From UHGV virus genome UHGV-0038492: DNA of 64,000 bases; one strand, 5' to 3'. The notes beneath the pieces were generated by a model. The model ran no database searches, was not told the origin of the DNA, and saw nothing but the letters and a program-made list of their open reading frames with translations. This document shows, one piece after another, positions 3,001 through 12,542 of the stretch. This stretch comes from a virus. A program made the position numbers and the translations under genes. The stretch's first letter is position 1; the number at the start of each line of letters is the position of its first letter.

Positions 3001-3746
3001 ACTGACTGTGGTAAACGAAACGCTTTCAGTTCTTCCGTTAACGCTTTCAACTTTAACCCGTACGCCATAAAGGTATCAGGTGTTTTCAGGTTAACGGGAT
3101 GAGCATTAATTTGTGCGTTTGTGGTTTCGTGTGGGTTCGTTGCGGCGATATGTGCTGGGTAGTTAAACGCTTCAATTTCTTTCCCCAACGCAGTCACTAG
3201 CGCTTTAACTTCGGCTAATTTATCTTTAATTAGCTGGTTAGCGTCATCGGTTTTCAACTCAATGTCGTGAATCGCCGACGCTAAGTATTTTTTGTTCAGC
3301 AAATCCGCCCAGGACGTTGCCGCAGGCGTAGCTGGGTATAACGACGGTCTACCGTCTAACAACAGCCAGTCTGCACTGACTGGGTTATTCAAATATTTCA
3401 CCAACTCGTCGAGCATGTCAACGAACGGGTCGTAGAACGTACCGCCGAGCATTTGTCCTTCAAAGGTTACGATGCCTTTGATGGATGGGTTGATAAGGTG
3501 TACCCCACAATACACGTTGGCTGCTACCGAGTCATCCAGTTCCGTCAGCTGATATTGCAGTTCGTAGTCCACCCCACGGCTCAGTGGGGTGGTTGAACCT
3601 GGTTGTCTGACGACTAAGTCTTCAAAGAACGGGCGATGGTCTAAAATCACCACCCGGTCATTGTTGTTTTCTGACCCGATGATACGCTCCTCTAAGAAGT
3701 GATTCTCGGTTTTCGTCCCCCGAGGATCGTAAGGATACGCTTTCAT
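1..3746 (-). CDS. tail fibre protein, N-terminal >1240 aa (partial; ORF continues beyond window start)
   Basis: Minus-strand ATG at 3744-3746, 9 nt downstream of AGGAG; N-terminus MKAYPYDPRGTKTENHFLEERIIGSENNN; the track reports no complete minus ORF here, consistent with one frame open to position 1; segment ATTAEKGVVKLKTGKGTETVGVAATPASL (around 2450-2540) resembles the short repeats of T4-type tail fibres. Confidence 0.6.
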   Translation of the reverse strand, partial: MKAYPYDPRGTKTENHFLEERIIGSENNNDRVVILDHRPFFEDLVVRQPGSTTPLSRGVDYELQYQLTELDDSVAANVYCGVHLINPSIKGIVTFEGQMLGGTFYDPFVDMLDELVKYLNNPVSADWLLLDGRPSLYPATPAATSWADLLNKKYLASAIHDIELKTDDANQLIKDKLAEVKALVTALGKEIEAFNYPAHIAATNPHETTNAQINAHPVNLKTPDTFMAYGLKLKALTEELKAFRLPQSVIDTYISHWISSEVRGVFNCTVSGNRAQFRSKNGESEIIFANDGFTLKSNGSVVLAVGHLEGTGAGRYINWRAGNNVLRIESTGDALGMNKLTLNGNPLLTTTALMEYQQDPDAGGGGSDPDDSKVYIEGRNGISFTGKGSRTDPIVGTIDPTKATTAEKGVVKLKTGKGTETVGVAATPASLTPYSTDLSGYVTKTTMINGKPMNDGSRTITKADLGLGQADNTADLDKPLSTALNASVSGLADVGHHHDWSELGIYKASQTVYGIGRYATNQNGLVENRAVVPNILKELSARLDVVAAAIANAKEGTVTDFAAVKGADWRFNSQGTSISVQDLKYFYLLDGTKGDSTVTGAIDLQTTPMFNWFSPNNQLELTWPTGKVSNGTGINWTGIEEPPLMGFQSVPVGKTATQMGDQSVVTVLAKTRVRAYQPKLWVYAAGGGPVTVYINGVLAASGESPLVAVYETSSDVENYTVAVKAECSDTAKSAAVQFEVYDGNYPVYFSGPETRVELLQEFVTTHVGIRHYLYVNMLTGSLYSRAEPIQSIAVDPERGYIGYVDVVAGENYANKTVGFETTFDFGKSAEVSEHIDTRKAHGLSSVDWALTDNPRLPLLNRATPEPRALIYQKMLGSGSGGTICSLSRGLFSYSHGLNVKTDLELIFSTEGATPYCWFTPFNPKENNAPTFEGSFVFDVDDIGGTKALSVAPDLILCAGSQGSTVGRRYVRIDLTSKTCKVGVGAVSSSEVWHKSFEKNNGSMLMDAGSETSVEITTKDVLFNGELTNASILDLIGWGTSGDKISANHAPRGMIRYRYNVSTRVLRLALSFSQFGSTTIDLRQIEIMFPFDLVDYFTGDGVGLAFKGLSEKCCLVINHALIDPKTGNIDIDKYHYLRSLFESYMDSSVGWLAESKDGDYYQKLIDPTTYEYGLSYCPTETIALPTGQGSVAISHDGQLPAQFFPRKLSRGSLMAKKNELHTSWNNEWSTTKAAASRYRHKLILRFAQG

Positions 3747-3759
3747 CAAAAAATTCTCC

Positions 3760-6700
3760 TTAATCGCGAATGATTACCGCCTGCACTTTATTGTTGGTGT
3801 CGATAAACGACATTACGCGCTCCTTGTTAAGATAAGGAGGTATCGGTAACGCAGCGTAATCCGCCAGGTTGTTATTAAACTCGGTTGCCACTAGCGCATT
3901 AAGCGTTTCGGGGTCTGAGCTTGTCCCGGCCAATTCCATAACACGTACACGATTTAACGAGGAGTAGTTGCTGATATAATCCAACAGCGTACCGTAGAGT
4001 TTATTCCCGGTTATGCTGTCCGCCGTAGAGCGGATATTGGCACGCACTTCGTCCTCATAAAGTCCCCCTAATCCGTAGTAAATAGGGGTGTACGGATCGT
4101 TAACGATAGGCGCGAGGTTGAACCCGGTTAAACGGTCGGTCAGCGAGATTTTCTGCGTAGTACCACCTGCCGCCGTACAGCTTACGTATTTATCTGCCGC
4201 AGACAAATACACCACAATGGTGTAAACAGTACCTGCTAAGGTCAGCGTTGCGTTAAACGTTAATTCGTTATTCGCACCACGCGTGTGGGTAAATGACACG
4301 TCAGGTTGTAACGTACTCCACGGTGCTGGGGTAACACGTTTGGTCGGCGTGAAGCCTAACACCACAGATCTCCCGTTACCGAAGTTTAAACCAAACCCGG
4401 CGTAACAATACTCACCGTTACTGTCGGTTAAACGATAACCACGGGTGATAAGTAACGACAATCGCATAAACTCGTCATCGGTATTTTTCCAGCAACCCAG
4501 GACGGTTTCTAGCACCGTACCGGTTTTTGCGTTGCTTTCGGTTTCCCAACTGACACGCATCCCCGCATTGTTAAATACCGGGAACAGGTTGTGGATAAAT
4601 CCGTGAACGTTATCACTTACCCCTTTCGCATCAAACACCCACTTCGACGCAAGCTGGTCGTATTTCACACCATCGAGTGCTTTATATTCGTCACCAACCA
4701 CATAACGCCAGTCTGCTTCGCCACGCGCAACCGCTTGAAGTCCAGAAGCCCAGCAGGGCGCACCTACTGTTAAATTGCTTAACCCCAGCACTGCGCGCGA
4801 AGCAGAACGCTGAATGTGTGCGTTGTCATTGGCGATGTGGTCTTTCAGCTCACGGAAATCACCTAACCGTGTCACGTTACGTAGTTCAGTAACGAACACT
4901 TCAGAAAGGTCGTTAATACCGATCAGCCCCACGCGCGTCATGGTATCCGTTTCAGCCTGACTGTAGCTGTCGTGAATAATGTACTTCGCTTTGTTATCGA
5001 CAATGTCAACAAAAATCCCTGCGTAAACTTCCTTATTCAGATTTGGGAAACGTTCAGTGACGTTAACCGACATCAACGGCACGTCGTACGTTTCACCGCC
5101 AATGAAATACGTGGAAGCAGGAAGTGTCACCAGGATATTGTCTTTAACCGTAACGTCGATTAAGTCGTTACCGGACTTACCAAAGCGAATAATGTCAACG
5201 CGCGCACCCGAGTCAACCCCGCCGACGGTGTTCTCCAAATTTTCAATCTGGGAAGTCTGCGCCATCACCACACTACTATCGAGTGCTAAAGTGGCATCAT
5301 CCACATCCAGACCGAATTTAATCAGACCCCGTTTCGTGGTGTCTGCGTTTTCAACACCGAACACAGAAGACGGGTGTTGGTGAACCTTCGGTGAGTATTT
5401 GTCTAACTCAGTCTGTTGTGCAACAGAAATCGGCAGGTCGAGGTCCGGGGTATTCGCAACGTTACCTAAACCAAAGGTAATTTTGTCGATAGTGACCGAA
5501 CTGGTAAGCTGCATCTCGTTGATGTACGACTTGGCAGCAACCAACTTACCGGTAAACTCTGCGTCCAGTTTTTCAATTAGCGCAGGAGTCGCCGCGAGGT
5601 TTTCAGCCGTACCAAACTCGTCAGTCAACTGCCAACATGCTAACGTCGTGACGTCATTGGCAACCGGAAGGATAAACGTTGCGACAAACGGCGATGCTTT
5701 AATCCCGCTACCCGTAAGTTCCACGGTAGACGTCGACGCACCGTAGAACAGTCCTGTACCGCCTGCGGTATTACCCGGCAAATACGGCCCGACCGTAGTG
5801 GGGTCTAAGAGCTTCTTACCACGCCACAACAGTCCACGGTCATCGGGGTATAGCACAAGCTGGTTACCGCCTGCTTGTAACGTAACAGGGTTATTACCCA
5901 CGTTAACATCGGTGGAGCCTTGACCAATGAACTTAATGGATTTCGGATCAACGACGAACTGGGCACCTAAACGTTTTTCGTCAACTACACCAGGGGCCTT
6001 TTTGATGGTGACGTAGTTTCTGCTGTGGGAAGACTGGATACTGACCCTATCTGCAACGTTATTGATAAATCTCTTGAAGTGATAACGGTTTTCCAGTGCT
6101 TCTAACTCGGCATCCATGTTGTCGAAATTGACACGCGCACTGTAGGTTTTCCCGTTTACCGTAACGATAACGTCAAAAAGATTACCGGTTCGTTTCATCT
6201 GGAAACGTAACGTGAAATCACCATCAGGTATCACCGGGTCGGGTGCTTTGGAGATATAACGGACTTGTGGTACTGTACCGACGCCATATCCGCTAAGCGA
6301 CACTTCGATAGAAAGGCTATTCCCCCAGAGTGAGCCCTCCAACTCGACAAACTTACCAGAGTCGGTGCCCGGATTCTCGTAGAATCGCATCTGTACCGCA
6401 CCGACCGGTGAGTTATCTCCTGCAACTCTTGTACCCGTTACAATAAAGTCGATATCTTGTAAATCAGCGGGAACGCCGTTAAAATAACATCCGAATCCGT
6501 TTCTAGTTCCGCTGTAGCGAAGCGCCCCGTGGTATCTAATTCCGTCCGAAACGTAATATTCGCTAAAATACTGACTAACGTATTTCGACATCGACACAGG
6601 GTCGACTTCGGTAGTAAATGACGTAAAGCCAGGAAGCGTCGTAATCGTGCCGTTAGCGTTCTTGCTCGCCGATTCACGAAGCAGTTTTCTCTGGGCGGTT

Positions 6701-8085
6701 AGCGTTGCCTGTGTTGGGTATTTAGCGTTAACGTAGTCCGTTAACTGTTGCTTGGTTTTCCCGTAGGTTAACGCTGCATCGGACGCAATGCCGTTTAACT
6801 CTAACGCACGAATCGGACCCCAGGTGTCAGCGTGTGGGTTGTCTTTACGAGTGACGTGTTCGTGCGCAGGTGCGTTACGATAGAGCTGTTCTACTAACTG
6901 ATGGTACTTAACGATTAGCTGATAAACGTCATTACTTACGTCAGCTTCTGGCGCACCAGGTAACGCAAGGAATTGTGCATAATCGTTTTCAGCCGCCCAC
7001 CAGTTTAAGTTAACGTTGGTTTTGTATTTCAGCCACTTCGCAACATCCGTTTTGGTGTAACCTGCTGAGAATTCGTCTGGCGGTGTGTCAACGTTAAAGG
7101 TGTAGTCCATGGACTGTTTGTTGGTCGTCACCTCGATAACGTATACACCGTTACCCGGTTGACGGACAACGCTAAACGTTAACTCGCCTTTTAATTCGTC
7201 GTCGGTCAAACCGTTGATTAACGTATAATCGTAATCGGTCGAACCACTGCCTAACGCAACGGTCAGACGTAGGAAGATCTTACGTTGTTTTAATTGGAGA
7301 CGAAGGATACTTGCACCACCATTCGCGTAGCACAGCATCCAATCGATTTGTTCGTTCGGGTTAATACTCCCCATGTTCGGAAAAATAGCCGGGATACGGT
7401 ATTTCATCGACAGGGAATATTCATTTAACGTGGTGGTTTTGTACGTAACGGAGAAACGACGTTTAGCGGTATTGTAGGTATACCCACCTTTGTTGTCGTA
7501 CGTTGCGTACTGTTCAGACGTGATAACCGTACCATTAGCACGATGTTCGATATCTAACGTGTTACGCGCAATCGGGTCTACCCGATTCACCACGTTACCT
7601 AACGAATCACCTAAGCCCGCAATGGCCTGCATTAATTCCAGTTCGCCTTTCCAGTTTTCCCAGTCGAACTGAATGTCGACCGGTGGAAAGTAAACATCGC
7701 CGATAACGGTATCCCATTGACACGCAGACGGGTATTTATCTTTATTGAGTTCGCGTTCTGCGGTAATCTGTTCTTGGGTCGCTTCACCACAACCTACGGC
7801 GTGGTAATCTACCGTGAAATTCGATTTGTATTTGTCGTTAACAATCCAAATCATCCCGTGCACGAGATAGGCTGTGCGCAACATACCGGTCTCGTACGGG
7901 TGTGTAATAACGTAATCGTCGCCTAAGGTCAGTATTTTGCCGCCGCTCTTGACCACCAGGGATGTGGTGAAAAAAGGGGCGTGGGCAGGTACCAACATTC
8001 GGTACTTCGTACCAATGACGGCGACCGCTTCACCGGTTATTTTATTCCCCGGTTCTTTGAAGTGTGGGTCTAGGACGACAGCCAT
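3760..8085 (-). CDS. large virion structural protein (1441 aa), putative tail fibre / tail spike component
   Basis: Complete 1441-aa ORF in track; its stop lies 14 nt upstream of the start of the downstream tail-fibre gene (same strand); function inferred from size and neighbourhood only. Confidence 0.75.
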   Translation of the reverse strand: MAVVLDPHFKEPGNKITGEAVAVIGTKYRMLVPAHAPFFTTSLVVKSGGKILTLGDDYVITHPYETGMLRTAYLVHGMIWIVNDKYKSNFTVDYHAVGCGEATQEQITAERELNKDKYPSACQWDTVIGDVYFPPVDIQFDWENWKGELELMQAIAGLGDSLGNVVNRVDPIARNTLDIEHRANGTVITSEQYATYDNKGGYTYNTAKRRFSVTYKTTTLNEYSLSMKYRIPAIFPNMGSINPNEQIDWMLCYANGGASILRLQLKQRKIFLRLTVALGSGSTDYDYTLINGLTDDELKGELTFSVVRQPGNGVYVIEVTTNKQSMDYTFNVDTPPDEFSAGYTKTDVAKWLKYKTNVNLNWWAAENDYAQFLALPGAPEADVSNDVYQLIVKYHQLVEQLYRNAPAHEHVTRKDNPHADTWGPIRALELNGIASDAALTYGKTKQQLTDYVNAKYPTQATLTAQRKLLRESASKNANGTITTLPGFTSFTTEVDPVSMSKYVSQYFSEYYVSDGIRYHGALRYSGTRNGFGCYFNGVPADLQDIDFIVTGTRVAGDNSPVGAVQMRFYENPGTDSGKFVELEGSLWGNSLSIEVSLSGYGVGTVPQVRYISKAPDPVIPDGDFTLRFQMKRTGNLFDVIVTVNGKTYSARVNFDNMDAELEALENRYHFKRFINNVADRVSIQSSHSRNYVTIKKAPGVVDEKRLGAQFVVDPKSIKFIGQGSTDVNVGNNPVTLQAGGNQLVLYPDDRGLLWRGKKLLDPTTVGPYLPGNTAGGTGLFYGASTSTVELTGSGIKASPFVATFILPVANDVTTLACWQLTDEFGTAENLAATPALIEKLDAEFTGKLVAAKSYINEMQLTSSVTIDKITFGLGNVANTPDLDLPISVAQQTELDKYSPKVHQHPSSVFGVENADTTKRGLIKFGLDVDDATLALDSSVVMAQTSQIENLENTVGGVDSGARVDIIRFGKSGNDLIDVTVKDNILVTLPASTYFIGGETYDVPLMSVNVTERFPNLNKEVYAGIFVDIVDNKAKYIIHDSYSQAETDTMTRVGLIGINDLSEVFVTELRNVTRLGDFRELKDHIANDNAHIQRSASRAVLGLSNLTVGAPCWASGLQAVARGEADWRYVVGDEYKALDGVKYDQLASKWVFDAKGVSDNVHGFIHNLFPVFNNAGMRVSWETESNAKTGTVLETVLGCWKNTDDEFMRLSLLITRGYRLTDSNGEYCYAGFGLNFGNGRSVVLGFTPTKRVTPAPWSTLQPDVSFTHTRGANNELTFNATLTLAGTVYTIVVYLSAADKYVSCTAAGGTTQKISLTDRLTGFNLAPIVNDPYTPIYYGLGGLYEDEVRANIRSTADSITGNKLYGTLLDYISNYSSLNRVRVMELAGTSSDPETLNALVATEFNNNLADYAALPIPPYLNKERVMSFIDTNNKVQAVIIRD

Positions 8086-8152
8086 TATCTACTCCTATAG
8101 TCCGTGGGCGTCGAGTTCATACTATGACTTGAATCTATTGAGGAAAAGAGCT

Positions 8153-9415
8153 GTGACTACTGCTTATCAAGTGCGGCCTGACAGCGCTTTTGGCTTCTCT
8201 CGTGAGACCCGTACCTGGGGAGCCATCGACGTCACGCAACCCTTAGAAACCTTGTGTTCTGATTACCATATTTTCGAAGTCGGTCTGAGTGCGCTTGGTA
8301 GAGACTATACGTTAATTAGCCAATATCACCTCGCTGACTTACAAAACCGTACCGATACATTACAAGACTGGCTGAATGAAAAAGCCGGTGTGGTTATCTC
8401 TGCATTAAAAGACGGTTTACCGACGTTAGAGTTTGATTGGGCACACTACCAATCGATTAATGCCGACGTTCCAGTAGAAACCTACCTGTGTCCTCCCGGT
8501 TATCATTACAGTCAAGATTTCAGTACAGACGATGCTGACGACGTTGTGGTGGTGTGTGAAGATAAATGGAAAGACAAATACCGTAACGGGGTGTTGTACA
8601 ACATCAACGGACAGTGGGTGCCGCATCAATCCGATACTGTTGGCGTACGTTTACCGGGTGCGGGTAAGATAGTACGTCGTGCGGGGACACCGGATATCGG
8701 GTGTATGGTCTTTAGTAAATTGGGGAATGTTAAGACGTACCCCATTGCTAATTTGACCTTAAACAAACTCGACACCACCCGTGACTATTATTCCACGTTA
8801 ATGATTTCTTTACCGGAATCTATTACAGATAAAACCGTGGGGTTTGTTATCGGGGGACTGATACACTGGTTACCGGTTACTGGGTACTTCTCCGACAAAG
8901 CCATTATGGTGTCGCTACCGAACTTTGACGTTGCGCGTACTGTGTTAGAAACCCGACGTTATTACGACTGGGACAGCATTGGTGTGGGTGATTTGTCATC
9001 ACCGACCAACGTACAGCGTATCCGTAACCCAGAAACGTTAAAGGCGCTTTTAACCCACGAGTCGTCGTTTATCTTTACGGTGGATAATCCGTATCTGGAA
9101 GAAGAAGTTGTGGGGGTTTCTCACAACGCTATCTGGGGACGTTTATACCTTAAAGATCCTACCGACCCTGATGGGGAAAAACAACTGGGGTATCTGTTAA
9201 ACCGCTTCGGTAAAACCGTTGCCTATTGGCCGACGTGGGAAGAAGGGGAATGGGTATTTAACACCACGGAGTTTGACAGTCAAAACTACGTGTTCCGTGA
9301 AGCCCGTTGGTATAACCAGAAGAAAATTAACGATGCACAGGCAATCGTAGGGCCTTTCGGTCCCTGGGAAAAAGTCTATTTAGAAATGCATCGTTTCCGT
9401 GCAAGAAAAAAATAA
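8153..9415 (+). CDS. hypothetical protein (about 420 aa)
   Basis: Track ORF 7937-9415 trimmed to the first start codon clear of the divergent minus gene: GTG at 8153 preceded by GAGGAAAAGAG (alternative TTG at 8138); followed by a hairpin terminator. Confidence 0.6.
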   Translation: MTTAYQVRPDSAFGFSRETRTWGAIDVTQPLETLCSDYHIFEVGLSALGRDYTLISQYHLADLQNRTDTLQDWLNEKAGVVISALKDGLPTLEFDWAHYQSINADVPVETYLCPPGYHYSQDFSTDDADDVVVVCEDKWKDKYRNGVLYNINGQWVPHQSDTVGVRLPGAGKIVRRAGTPDIGCMVFSKLGNVKTYPIANLTLNKLDTTRDYYSTLMISLPESITDKTVGFVIGGLIHWLPVTGYFSDKAIMVSLPNFDVARTVLETRRYYDWDSIGVGDLSSPTNVQRIRNPETLKALLTHESSFIFTVDNPYLEEEVVGVSHNAIWGRLYLKDPTDPDGEKQLGYLLNRFGKTVAYWPTWEEGEWVFNTTEFDSQNYVFREARWYNQKKINDAQAIVGPFGPWEKVYLEMHRFRARKK

Positions 9416-9420
9416 ATAAC

Positions 9421-9462
9421 CTCCTACCCTCTTAGAGGGTAGGAGTAGCACGTTTTTTTTTT
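9421..9462. terminator. bidirectional intrinsic terminator hairpin (CTCCTACCCT / AGGGTAGGAG, 10-bp stem)
   Basis: Perfect 10-bp stem 9421-9430 / 9436-9445 with 5-nt loop; T-run 9453-9462 on plus strand; on the minus strand the stem is followed by GTTATTTATTTTTTT; sits between convergent gene ends 9415 (+) and 9466 (-). Confidence 0.7.
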
Positions 9463-9465
9463 CAC

Positions 9466-9675
9466 TTAGTCTTTTTTGTAGACGATCGCGTTACCGTGCA
9501 GTTTGTTGTTACCGGAAATACCGATAACTTTAAACGCTTCACCGCCGATCTTTTCAGCTTCGACAGCCAGCTTAGCAGTAACGTCGTCTACGGTGTCACC
9601 GAAAGCACTTACGTTACCAATTTTCTTGAACTCTTCAGGAATGTGTTCAGCAGAAGAGAATTCTTTAATAGCCAT
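9466..9675 (-). CDS. DUF1471 (YhcN / BhsA-like) domain protein, 69 aa, no signal peptide
   Basis: C-terminal FKVIGISGNNKLHGNAIVYKK matches the conserved end of enterobacterial DUF1471 proteins (BhsA-like ...TLHGTAVIYK, recalled from memory); N-terminus is hydrophilic with no hydrophobic leader. Confidence 0.6.
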   Translation of the reverse strand: MAIKEFSSAEHIPEEFKKIGNVSAFGDTVDDVTAKLAVEAEKIGGEAFKVIGISGNNKLHGNAIVYKKD

Positions 9676-9735
9676 AGCTACTCTCCAGTTAAAGAAAGGA
9701 AGGACTGTATCGTGTTACAACCAAAGCATAAGATA

Positions 9736-9755
9736 GCTCCTCCCTTCTGGGAGGA
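9736..9755 (-). terminator. candidate hairpin terminator downstream of the 321-aa minus gene
   Basis: 8-bp stem CTCCTCCC / GGGAGGAG with 4-nt loop, about 120 nt past the stop at 9876; weakly U-rich on the minus strand. Confidence 0.3.
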
Positions 9756-9875
9756 GTAGAGTGCGCGAAAAAAGTGGCCTGCTTAACTAAACGATGAGGT
9801 TTAAGAAAAGTGTTGATAAGAAGCTTACCAACGTCAGGTCACAATATATAATACCAACGTAAGAAAAAGGGGAAA

Positions 9876-10841
9876 TTAGCGCGGGCCTGAAGTTGGACCA
9901 TGTACACCGTCGTGGATGTGTACGCTGAAGGTAATACCGGAAATCACCGCATCCTTAACTGTAAAGACGCCCACACCTTCACCCGTACCACCGTATTTGA
10001 AGTTCTTAGCAACTTCCAAATTACCGGTGAACATCGCCTCATTACCTTCTTGCTTAAAGTTCGGCGTTTTATACGTTGTGGAACCAGAGGCTTCGGTTAG
10101 CCACGTTTCTGTTTTAAAGGTAACCGATTTCGACGCTTCGGTATTCCGAACTTCGCATTTCTCATTAATCGTTTTCGTTTCCAGGTTAATCGAACGTTTT
10201 GCGTAAATGAACGCATCTTCTTTGTTGATGTTCACCTTCGAAAGCATCGCGTTCTCAAAACCTAGATCGTCTTCCACCGAGTTAATGTAATACTTATTCC
10301 CTTTATGGTCAACGCACTGCCACGATCCGTTAGCGTTATCGAATTGGAATAACCACGCCGCTTTCTCCCCGTTCACCATGCTTGTTCTTAGGGTAACGTG
10401 TTTGTCAATCGTTGAGACGTTTAACACATACGCGTTCGACAAGTCATCCGCCATCTGGTTTTCAGGGTCAGCAGACCACGCGTAAACCGCATCCTCTAAT
10501 CGCTTAACGTTAGCGAAATTCAAATCAATCCAAAAATAAATATCGGTTTGCCCTAGACGTAGCAAGATAACGTAATCTTCACGCTTAACGTCTGGGGAAT
10601 TAATTCGGTTGGAATTAAACTTCCACCACTTTGCAGTAATCGTGTTACCGGTTTTAATCGTTAGGTTGTCGGTAGCACCCCCGGCTTCGTGTACCTTTTC
10701 AGCGGTTGAGGAAACCGATTGTACAACGGTAGGGTTCGCAAAGTTGGTTTCAATGGGAATAACACTCACCCGATCCGTACCACGAGGTTTATCTTCCGCG
10801 ACGATACCAATCGAGAAAAAGTCAACGCTGGATTTCTCCAT
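9876..10841 (-). CDS. hypothetical protein (321 aa)
   Basis: Track ORF; minus-strand ATG preceded by AAGGAA with 7-nt spacer. Confidence 0.65.
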   Translation of the reverse strand: MEKSSVDFFSIGIVAEDKPRGTDRVSVIPIETNFANPTVVQSVSSTAEKVHEAGGATDNLTIKTGNTITAKWWKFNSNRINSPDVKREDYVILLRLGQTDIYFWIDLNFANVKRLEDAVYAWSADPENQMADDLSNAYVLNVSTIDKHVTLRTSMVNGEKAAWLFQFDNANGSWQCVDHKGNKYYINSVEDDLGFENAMLSKVNINKEDAFIYAKRSINLETKTINEKCEVRNTEASKSVTFKTETWLTEASGSTTYKTPNFKQEGNEAMFTGNLEVAKNFKYGGTGEGVGVFTVKDAVISGITFSVHIHDGVHGPTSGPR

Positions 10842-10895
10842 TAGGTCGTTCCTTAGATCGGAAATGTAATCAGATATATTTTACTTAAGTGAATA

Positions 10896-10920
10896 GGGGC
10901 TGAACTCGCACTTCAGCCCC
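10896..10920. other. 9-bp stem-loop (GGGGCTGAA / TTCAGCCCC) in the divergent intergenic region
   Basis: Perfect 9-bp inverted repeat 10896-10904 / 10912-10920 with 7-nt loop; no adjacent T-run, so more likely a regulatory or processing structure than a terminator. Confidence 0.4.
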
Positions 10921-10973
10921 TATGGGCACGTTTCTTTCGAAACGGAGTTACCACGTGATTAGGAGACAGACCA

Positions 10974-11051
10974 ATGTCTACTGAGAAGAAAAGCGGATTG
11001 AACGAAGTAATCGTACTGTTCAAACGCGACAACCCGGCTATTCCTCGGTAA
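10974..11051 (+). CDS. small ORF (25 aa, MSTEKKSGLNEVIVLFKRDNPAIPR)
   Basis: ATG 10974 preceded by AGGAGA with 7-nt spacer; too short for the track; real-gene status uncertain. Confidence 0.2.
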   Translation: MSTEKKSGLNEVIVLFKRDNPAIPR

Positions 11052-11229
11052 TCATAGTATTACTTAAAATTTACAGATTATCCCTTTATTCTGCTACTCG
11101 GGATACCGGTAGGGGGTAGGGGGCAATATGTATACGGATATAAATAGCGGAGGTATACGTAGTATACCGACATACTCTTCCCAGAGGAACGTAGTGACTT
11201 CCTTATTCCTTTTTAGGAGAATAAACCCC

Positions 11230-11964
11230 ATGAGAGAATTGATTGACGATATCTTTACCAATACCAGTTTAGAACTTTCTTCTACGGTGGTTAACGATCT
11301 AATAGGACAACCGTATCCTGCTAAGTTAATGTCAGTCGGTACCATTAAACCTGAAGATTATCCAGACAATGACATTATCGACTGTATAATTGACGAATAC
11401 ACGATAGCCAGTTACGCCAGTCGGGTCTTCTTTGTTCTTAATAGCGAAACCAGTGTCATTTTAATCTATAAGTTGATTAGTGGTGCTGAACTTGAAGTTG
11501 TAGCCGACCACATTCGTCTTATTGCGAGCACGATTGATGATTTCGCTGATGCGCTTTTTGGAGACAGTTGGCCTTTGCAACCCCTCTTCTCTTACTTCCC
11601 TCTATTTAAACATGGAATAGGGTTAATCCGACATGCAGAAAACCTTCCCGATAACGTAGAGCTATCGCTGCTTGGACCCGGCATCGATCTTTATCCATTA
11701 GAAGACGAGGGCACGCTATATGGTTTGCGCATTTATGTTTCTGTGTTAGAGGGATACCGCGTTATTGAATTGATTGCATCAGATTTAGCAAAACAGATCC
11801 CTGAAGCAGAAACGATTTCTAAAGCCACCCACCTGGTTGAGTTTAACCCAGCCGATCCGTTATTAAAATATCACAAAGAAATTGACATTCGTAAAATCGC
11901 CACGGTAAGAGGGTGGGGTTGTGTTGAGATTACGAATAATAACCTGTTACTAGTACGTAAGTAA
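11230..11964 (+). CDS. hypothetical protein; divergent member of the GW...LLF C-terminal-module paralogue family
   Basis: Track ORF 11128-11964 trimmed to ATG 11230 preceded by AGGAGAATAAA; C-terminus IATVRGWGCVEITNNNLLLVRK aligns with the module of the next three genes. Confidence 0.6.
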   Translation: MRELIDDIFTNTSLELSSTVVNDLIGQPYPAKLMSVGTIKPEDYPDNDIIDCIIDEYTIASYASRVFFVLNSETSVILIYKLISGAELEVVADHIRLIASTIDDFADALFGDSWPLQPLFSYFPLFKHGIGLIRHAENLPDNVELSLLGPGIDLYPLEDEGTLYGLRIYVSVLEGYRVIELIASDLAKQIPEAETISKATHLVEFNPADPLLKYHKEIDIRKIATVRGWGCVEITNNNLLLVRK

Positions 11965-11987: not shown

Positions 11988-12542
11988 ATGTTTCAAACTG
12001 AACTGAAAAATGAAATTATCCAATCCCTTGAAAAAGGCGTAGGCGAACATTTCTTTGTCTGTCCTTATACTGTACTGACCAATACCATTATTCAGCCAGG
12101 CGCGATGATAGTAGGGGTGAGTGTACAAGCTGTGGAGGAAACCCCGCTGCGTCGCAACATCACTCGTAAAAACCATATTCCATTTAGAACGGGTTTTACA
12201 GATTACTTTCAGAGCTTACTGAAAGATAGCGTTTGGAAAACAGGTAGTTTCTTCCACGAAGGGAAAACATCCACGCTGGTTTATAAAGAGAATACCAAGT
12301 ATCTGGTTGATTTTCTCTTAGCGCGTCAATACGCTTTCTTTCCTTCACCCACCGGTCTCACCCCAGACAATCCGAGTAAGCTGTTAAACCAAGACGAAGC
12401 CGAAGCACTGCGTGCACAACTAAGAAAAGAAGGTTGTGATGTCGATGACTGGGAAACGTTGATCGCAGTCGCTAAAGCACACGGTTGGTATACCGTGCGT
12501 AATCTCGGTCAGCAATTGTTGTTCTTAGCTTACCCTGCTTAA
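11988..12542 (+). CDS. hypothetical protein (184 aa); GW...QLLF module family
   Basis: Track ORF; RBS AAAGGAGAA; C-terminus IAVAKAHGWYTVRNLGQQLLFLAYPA. Confidence 0.75.
   Translation: MFQTELKNEIIQSLEKGVGEHFFVCPYTVLTNTIIQPGAMIVGVSVQAVEETPLRRNITRKNHIPFRTGFTDYFQSLLKDSVWKTGSFFHEGKTSTLVYKENTKYLVDFLLARQYAFFPSPTGLTPDNPSKLLNQDEAEALRAQLRKEGCDVDDWETLIAVAKAHGWYTVRNLGQQLLFLAYPA

Follow-up and report, generated by a model that had tools for sequence, protein, structure and literature searches.

A 69-codon gene in the virus genome UHGV-0038492 was found to be a new ortholog of a known, annotated phage family, already catalogued as PHROG 8068 and as RefSeq WP_079772428.1 ("DUF1471 domain-containing protein"). 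The stretch analyzed, 64,000 nucleotides in length, is referred to as the window. The gene encodes a DUF1471 protein without a signal peptide, and such a copy is kept in the baseplate module by a whole clade of nucleus-forming jumbo phages. It is an old and conserved gene, and a recent capture from the host is not supported. We tentatively propose, with somewhat less than even confidence, that the product is an accessory protein of the baseplate module which is separately transcribed and made in the cytoplasm, would reach the envelope by lysis or on the tail and not by Sec, and would bind an envelope component there. DUF1471 proteins are numerous in enteric bacteria and respond to stress and biofilm conditions, and we know of no biochemical activity for any of them. 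One 69-codon gene in the tractable phage SPN3US is therefore a genetic handle on the binding target of the domain, and may reveal an unrecognized accessory step in jumbo-phage adsorption or penetration.

Table 1. Features of the DUF1471 locus in the window.
Feature	Position	Strand	Remarks
DUF1471 gene without signal peptide, 69 aa	9466..9675	-	SPN3US gp172 ortholog; PHROG 8068 member; identical to RefSeq WP_079772428.1
Shine-Dalgarno sequence GGAG	9683..9686	-	7 nt before the ATG; read from the sequence; GGAG/GAGG kept in relatives
TATG motif	9727..9730	-	About 50 nt upstream of the ATG; putative promoter
Upstream hairpin	9737..9756	-	8 bp, 6 of them G-C; separates the DUF1471 gene from the spike gene
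Invariant 12-mer GCCACTTTTTTC	9767..9778	-	3' end of a foldable element of about 80 nt (about 9765-9842)
Bidirectional terminator	9406..9459	.	A-run, 11-bp hairpin (9421-9445), T-run; common with the convergent gene
Central tail spike (cell-puncturing device)	9876..10841	-	Homolog of phiKZ gp164 and SPN3US gp173; Mu gp45-like apex
420-aa baseplate protein	8153..9415	+	Homolog of phiKZ gp130 and SPN3US gp171; convergent with the DUF1471 gene
1441-aa virion structural protein	3760..8085	-	Position of SPN3US gp170; paralog family gp168-170 holds baseplate/fibre candidates

The open reading frame starts with ATG and its product (7.4 kDa, acidic, single-domain) ends in ...GISGNNKLHGNAIVYKKD, which confirms the 69-aa product with a conserved C-terminal end described in an earlier note on this DNA. 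That note had also proposed a DUF1471 domain, and this was borne out by Pfam, where PF07338 (YdgH/BhsA/McbA-like, formerly DUF1471) matched with a score of 40.3 bits (E 3.4e-10; gathering threshold 27 bits). Residues 17-67 correspond to profile positions 2-55 of 55 and the domain is whole; no other Pfam family matched the protein up to E = 1. The C-terminal pattern G-x-N-x-x-H-G-x-A-x-x-Y-K is common to the window protein and the enterobacterial DUF1471/YhcN family (BhsA, YbiJ, YahO, McbA, YhcN, SrfN, YdgH), a family typical of Enterobacteriaceae (PMC4092069). Within this family BhsA and YbiJ were closest by profile score. The nearest NCBIfam models were BhsA (47.4 bits) followed by YbiJ (36 bits), both far below the equivalog cut-offs (90 bits for BhsA, NF047859, and 110 bits for YbiJ), and the alignment to the BhsA profile was limited to positions 30-85 of 85, i.e., to the mature part. 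The match to PHROG 8068 was full-length, with residues 1-69 on profile positions 1-70 of 70 (E 1.1e-31). A PADLOC search for defence systems gave no match, and we found no paper linking BhsA with jumbo phages.

An AlphaFold2 model built from a 20-sequence alignment (mean pLDDT 86.9) has the order strand, strand, helix, strand, strand. The solved structures that best matched the model were YdgH (4evu), SrfN (2ma8), STM1478 (2m2j), STM0082 (2jna) and YahO (2noc), with TM scores of 0.62-0.74. RcsF (2y1b), the closest fold to DUF1471 according to Eletsky et al. (PMC4092069), ranked after them. The protein is thus predicted to adopt the same mixed alpha+beta fold as the enterobacterial DUF1471/YhcN proteins. 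Significant matches in a viral structure library were limited to a 67-aa viral entry (39% identical), which is probably a member of the same phage DUF1471 family, and to a paralog from phage Wellington.

An N-terminal signal sequence is a feature of most DUF1471 members (PMC4092069). The earlier note had the window protein starting directly at the mature domain, and this is in agreement with an in-frame stop 14 codons upstream of the ATG, with the mature-domain-only alignment and with the hydrophilic N-terminus MAIKEFSSAEHIPEEF, where the highest 10-residue hydropathy is 0.4 compared to 1.6-2.9 in the bacterial relatives. The same holds for the phage family as a whole. Within the first 30 residues, the highest 10-residue hydropathy of 13 phage members was 0.3-1.3, compared to 1.6-2.9 for 12 bacterial proteins; none of the 13 phage members had a signal peptide and all were acidic (pI 4.5-5.7), while a clear hydrophobic leader was present in 11 of the 12 bacterial relatives, the remaining one resembling a mis-called start. 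When aligned with the bacterial relatives (80-103 aa), the phage proteins start about where the bacterial signal peptides stop. On the mechanism proposed here the loss would be expected, since phage particles assemble in the cytoplasm. The window protein differs from the enterobacterial family in that it is not exported by the producing cell and is encoded in a phage tail module.

The DUF1471 gene is located directly 3' of the gene for the central tail spike, on the same strand and separated from it by 200 bp. The spike protein matched phiKZ gp164 (PDB 6orj, 9xph) with E 1.8e-23, and its last 55 residues (266-320) gave a match to the apex domain of gp45, the puncturing device of Mu. On the other side, the convergent gene encodes a homolog of phiKZ gp130 (PDB 9xqd), which in phiKZ is located above the sites of fibre attachment and connects the star-lobe complexes in the outer baseplate (PMC13250141); the SPN3US counterpart, gp171, is essential (PMC5105663). 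Flanked by the spike, the gp130 homolog and the virion protein in the gp170 position, the DUF1471 gene lies inside the baseplate module. It is not isolated on the minus strand as first described, since the genes for the spike and for the 1441-aa virion protein are also on this strand and only the gp130 homolog opposes it. The statement that it is transcribed against the plus block stands in part: the gene is convergent with the gp130 homolog but co-oriented with the spike gene. Two open reading frames open a long plus-strand block beyond the spike gene, 11128-11964 (+; 278 aa) and 11988-12542 (+; 184 aa), and neither had a significant Pfam or PHROG match. The start codon of the former is uncertain, since annotations of variants of this phage give it a length of 245-250 aa.

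The distribution of the gene was determined by a tblastn search of the window protein against 50,697 phage records. Matches were obtained in 60 records, all of them jumbo phages of Enterobacterales, with identities of 37-78%. They comprise the SPN3US-like Seoulvirus, Erskinevirus (phiEaH2, Stratton, Asesino), Machinavirus, Wellingtonvirus, Derbicusvirus (CR5, Phobos, Derbicus) and Proteus phage 7. The window protein is 43% identical to SPN3US gp172 and up to 78% identical to the SPAsTU protein. The phage orthologs are 67-73 aa long, and SPN3US gp172 and the other PHROG 8068 members resemble the window gene in length, in the missing signal peptide and in the slot before the gp171 homolog. Nine loci were inspected and all had the same order: spike gene, spacer of 200-310 bp, DUF1471 gene, bidirectional hairpin and convergent gp171 homolog. 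Wellington has two additional genes in this interval.

Relatives of the spike protein were found in 290 records across nucleus-forming jumbo phages. A spike match of E<=1e-40 set apart 64 records, 62 from Enterobacterales phages and 2 from Vibrio phages. The two enterobacterial records outside the tblastn list both belong to phage Caitlin, which has a 69-aa gene that is present but too divergent for the cut-off. Since both Caitlin records also carry the gene, it is fixed in 62 of 62 enterobacterial records of the clade. The outgroups N1M2, SXP01 and OBP have no small open reading frame after the spike gene, and the convergent large gene follows about 50 bp on. The most economical account is one insertion into the ancestor shared by the enterobacterial clade, followed by vertical descent. 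Distant phage members scored 47-55 bits against each other and 45-60 bits against bacterial proteins; because they resemble bacterial proteins about equally, sequence scores do not prove a single origin and it is the synteny that carries the argument.

Between genera the dN/dS of the DUF1471 gene was 0.12-0.24. Seven variants of the window phage, from metagenomes and bacterial assemblies, differed by 1-4 nucleotides in the gene and by no amino acid, and amino-acid changes were present in the neighbouring genes of the same variants. The G+C content is 42.9% in the gene compared to 45.7% in the window. Within the first 25 kb, isolated phages align over no stretch longer than positions 7617-9628, which contain the gp130 homolog and most of the DUF1471 gene. 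Judged by this purifying selection, the silent variation, the ordinary G+C content and the conserved stretch, the gene is functional and long-resident. A word-indexed protein search gave only 4 close matches, an exhaustive search of 1.84 billion representatives gave 16, and no confirmed relative was found among the GTDB species-representative genomes.

Terminators on both sides of the gene had been claimed from the sequence, and hairpins were indeed found at both places. The downstream hairpin is G+C-rich (-23 kcal/mol, z -4.6), can terminate both convergent genes and is kept in all relatives. The T-tract that follows the upstream hairpin is weak in the window and clear in the relatives. The TATG motif was invariant in an upstream-region alignment of seven relatives and present in 10 of the 10 upstream regions read; Phobos, CR5 and Derbicus also have it at the corresponding position. 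The late promoter consensus of the phiKZ non-virion RNA polymerase is TATG, with G as +1 (PMC4666361), and we infer that the motif is a phage-polymerase promoter from which the DUF1471 gene would be transcribed as a monocistronic unit. As TATG is short and not enriched in the window (TATGC was not enriched in its intergenic DNA), the assignment comes from conservation across genomes. A TTTAC block located about 20 nt upstream of TATG in the relatives is missing from the window, and the pattern TTAC-N15-17-TNNTATG had one match in the window compared to 1.6 expected, which was not at the DUF1471 locus.

Invariant blocks were few in a seven-genome alignment of the spacer between the spike and DUF1471 genes. 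They consist of GCCACTTTTTTC, the hairpin (with the following T-run in the relatives) and TATG. The 12-mer GCCACTTTTTTC has a single copy in the window and one per related locus, and the 11-mer CCACTTTTTTC occurs once per locus, always in this spacer. The element of about 80 nt is bounded by a conserved TGTGAC block at one end and, at the other, by an invariant GCCAC with six T behind it. It folded better than shuffled sequence in four of five genomes (z -1.8 to -3.3), into a branched structure with a closing stem that ends at the T-run, and may represent a small RNA or else a branched terminator for spike transcription. An Rfam search at E<=1 of positions 9300-11200 gave only a sub-threshold match to the PyrG leader, located on the terminator hairpin, and an ARAGORN search for tRNA genes found nothing. 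RNAalifold returned no structure for the whole upstream-region alignment, which contains too many gaps. Six relatives have a small conserved hairpin-like block (AGACATAGGGTCT and variants) about 25-45 nt before the start codon, in what is presumably the 5' untranslated region; this block was not recognizable in the window. The spacer also contains a sigma-70-like match on the opposite strand (9825-9852, +; TTACCA, 16 nt, TATAAT; 10/12), reading antisense into the spike gene, which is probably due to chance as the region has 2 such matches compared to 4.5 expected.

SPN3US gp172 is the only phage member of the DUF1471 family for which proteomic data are available. Ali et al. (2017; PMC5694885) identified it in virions purified by CsCl step gradient, where 6 spectra from 4 unique peptides covered 81% of the protein, and termed it the smallest virion protein, with no function assigned. 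It was missing from particles of a gp47 mutant, with the caveat that the low-mass region of the gel was possibly unsampled (PMC5694885). In a later study gp172 was labelled "Tail" (Reilly et al., 2020, Table S2; PMC7411985). The same table lists 6 gp172 spectra for wild type, 3 for am59 grown on supD, 2 for heads and 13 for a crude differential-centrifugation pellet, and none for gradient-purified tailed particles, for the lower CsCl step-gradient band (am59-sup0-SB) or for three purified prohead-plus-tail samples, in two of which gp171 had 39 spectra and gp173 26-27. In the crude pellet the number of spectra relative to protein mass was 1.86 for gp172, 0.13 for gp171 and 0 for gp173 (PMC7411985). 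Tables S3 and S4 and the start of Table S5 of a 2023 study (PMC10052503) list gp171 and gp173 and not gp172, and a text search of its supplementary file for the gp172 locus tag gave no match. Thus, gp172 is certainly translated, and its association with the virion is inconsistent across the published proteomes. The detection pattern fits a well-expressed protein that is weakly bound or carried over, and also fits a low-copy 7-kDa component overlooked by gel-based workflows.

These observations can be accommodated in the following scheme. An ancestor of the clade of nucleus-forming jumbo phages that includes SPN3US, Erskinevirus, Machinavirus, Wellingtonvirus and Derbicusvirus would have acquired the domain from an enterobacterial host. 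This copy would have shed its signal peptide and become fixed just 3' of the central tail-spike gene. With the hairpin terminator, the TATG promoter motif, a strong ribosome-binding site and the bidirectional terminator it would form its own transcription unit, and it would therefore probably be expressed on its own schedule, in larger amounts than its neighbours and in the second half of the infection. The protein is expected to fold in the cytoplasm and to exit with the progeny, either on the tail or baseplate, bound weakly or in substoichiometric amounts, or as free protein upon lysis; a signal peptide would be unnecessary because it leaves the cell in this way. It may then act on the surface of the next cell or within its envelope, the compartment of the host DUF1471 proteins, and would most likely do so by binding one of the envelope components. 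A precedent is SrfN, a DUF1471 protein that binds anionic polysaccharides (PMC4092069). The binding face of SrfN is positively charged, whereas the window protein is acidic.

The accessory protein proposed here has to be weighed against an abundant late non-virion protein, for instance a chaperone for spike or baseplate assembly or a soluble factor released at lysis, with its detection in virions being carry-over. We regard this main rival as only slightly less probable. It agrees with the strong signals for a transcription unit of its own and with gp172 peaking in the crude pellet while being absent from the best-purified tailed particles, from the tail-containing samples and from those 2023 tables named above; the ratio of gp172 to gp173 and gp171 also varies between samples. 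On the other hand, 81% coverage was obtained from CsCl-purified wild-type virions and the authors grouped gp172 with the tail proteins. Gels readily lose a protein of 7 kDa that yields four usable tryptic peptides, a possibility raised by the authors themselves, and chaperone activity is not known for DUF1471 domains. The position of the gene would also fit a cargo or tip factor associated with the spike, carried through the outer membrane to the periplasm of the cell being infected, where it would mimic or antagonize BhsA-like envelope proteins. The gene is directly 3' of the spike gene and co-oriented with it in every member, the same slot encodes a spike-tip protein in phiKZ-like phages (phiKZ gp163.1; the PAAR-motif protein of PA7), delivery by the tail needs no signal peptide and gp172 carries the label "Tail". 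We nevertheless regard this as unlikely: the protein has no similarity to the PAAR protein, the spike already has a fused Mu gp45-like apex, and outgroups with the same fused apex lack a small gene at this place. Moreover, the inferred promoter and the terminator would uncouple the gene from the spike gene, and no gp172 was seen in purified tail samples that gave 26-27 spectra of the spike protein. It is similarly improbable that the tail, and not Sec, delivers the envelope stress domain of host type, carried on or near the spike, to the periplasm or outer membrane of the next host cell, where it would mimic or block BhsA/YbiJ-like proteins; if true, envelope permeability or stress signalling could, for example, be altered at DNA entry.

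The earlier note had likened the gene to a moron or a captured fragment of a host gene, which would imply a benefit for the fitness of the host or no role for the phage. A host-type domain, own terminators, a promoter-like motif and an orientation opposed to one neighbour are all compatible with this, as is the persistence of the phage in bacterial isolates, where it was deposited as a plasmid. Neither patchy presence nor atypical composition, by which a moron is recognized, was found. The gene occupies one position in the baseplate module in all 62 clade records, its domain is complete, it is under purifying selection and its base composition is ordinary. In addition, the best bacterial relative is only about 36-50% identical to the window protein, and without a signal peptide the compartment of the host DUF1471 proteins cannot be reached while the cell is alive. 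We therefore give a moron or recent capture very little credence.

The slot behind the spike gene is used differently in phiKZ-like phages. Their spike is shorter (293 aa), and the tip is a separate PAAR-motif protein of 88 aa encoded 10 bp behind the spike gene (locus L014, 2956-4113). Like the DUF1471 gene, the gene for phiKZ gp163.1 or for the PAAR tip protein of PA7 is small, located just 3' of the central spike gene and co-oriented with it. The PAAR tip protein (PF05488) is unrelated to the window protein in sequence and family, and the 10-bp spacing differs from the gap in the window, which holds terminators and a promoter-like motif. In addition, the window spike has its own apex domain. 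It appears that the spike tip is fused to the spike in some branches of the family and a separate protein in others. Homology of the DUF1471 protein to a PAAR analogue was considered and rejected, as there was no alignment to the PA7 PAAR protein and no PAAR match in Pfam to E = 1.

The window phage (about 222-226 kb) was absent from the collection of isolated phages, where the best match was 76% identical at the DNA level and covered 8% of the first 25 kb. Compared to the orthologs from isolated phages, the window gene thus belongs to a separate phage lineage. The phage matches two circular records deposited as plasmids, one from E. coli 98232 isolated from urine (221,873 bp, 97.2%) and one from Enterobacter ludwigii 51A:C isolated from a gull cloaca (222,441 bp, 95.3%). 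Both records (NZ_CP173450.1 and NZ_CP134650.1) are non-mobilizable and annotated with the identical WP_079772428.1, and these matches support the enterobacterial host that had been suggested from the sequence. In an index of public assemblies the exact 69-aa sequence is present in 1,836 blocks, and 248 of these blocks have contigs over 200 kb. The deposition of the window phage as a plasmid fits with reports of lytic jumbo phages in bacterial assemblies, including the proposed genus "Bapsvirus" of about 220 kb within Chimalliviridae (PMC12768965).

A second, tandem DUF1471 paralog was observed in Wellington, Kwan and pEa_SNUABM_11 and was limited to these phages (five records). In Wellington it corresponds to gp189 (186 aa; 3287-3847, +, of the inspected locus), which has an N-terminal DUF1471 domain (29.7 bits), lacks a signal peptide and carries an acidic C-terminal tail of about 120 residues that appears to be of low complexity and disordered.
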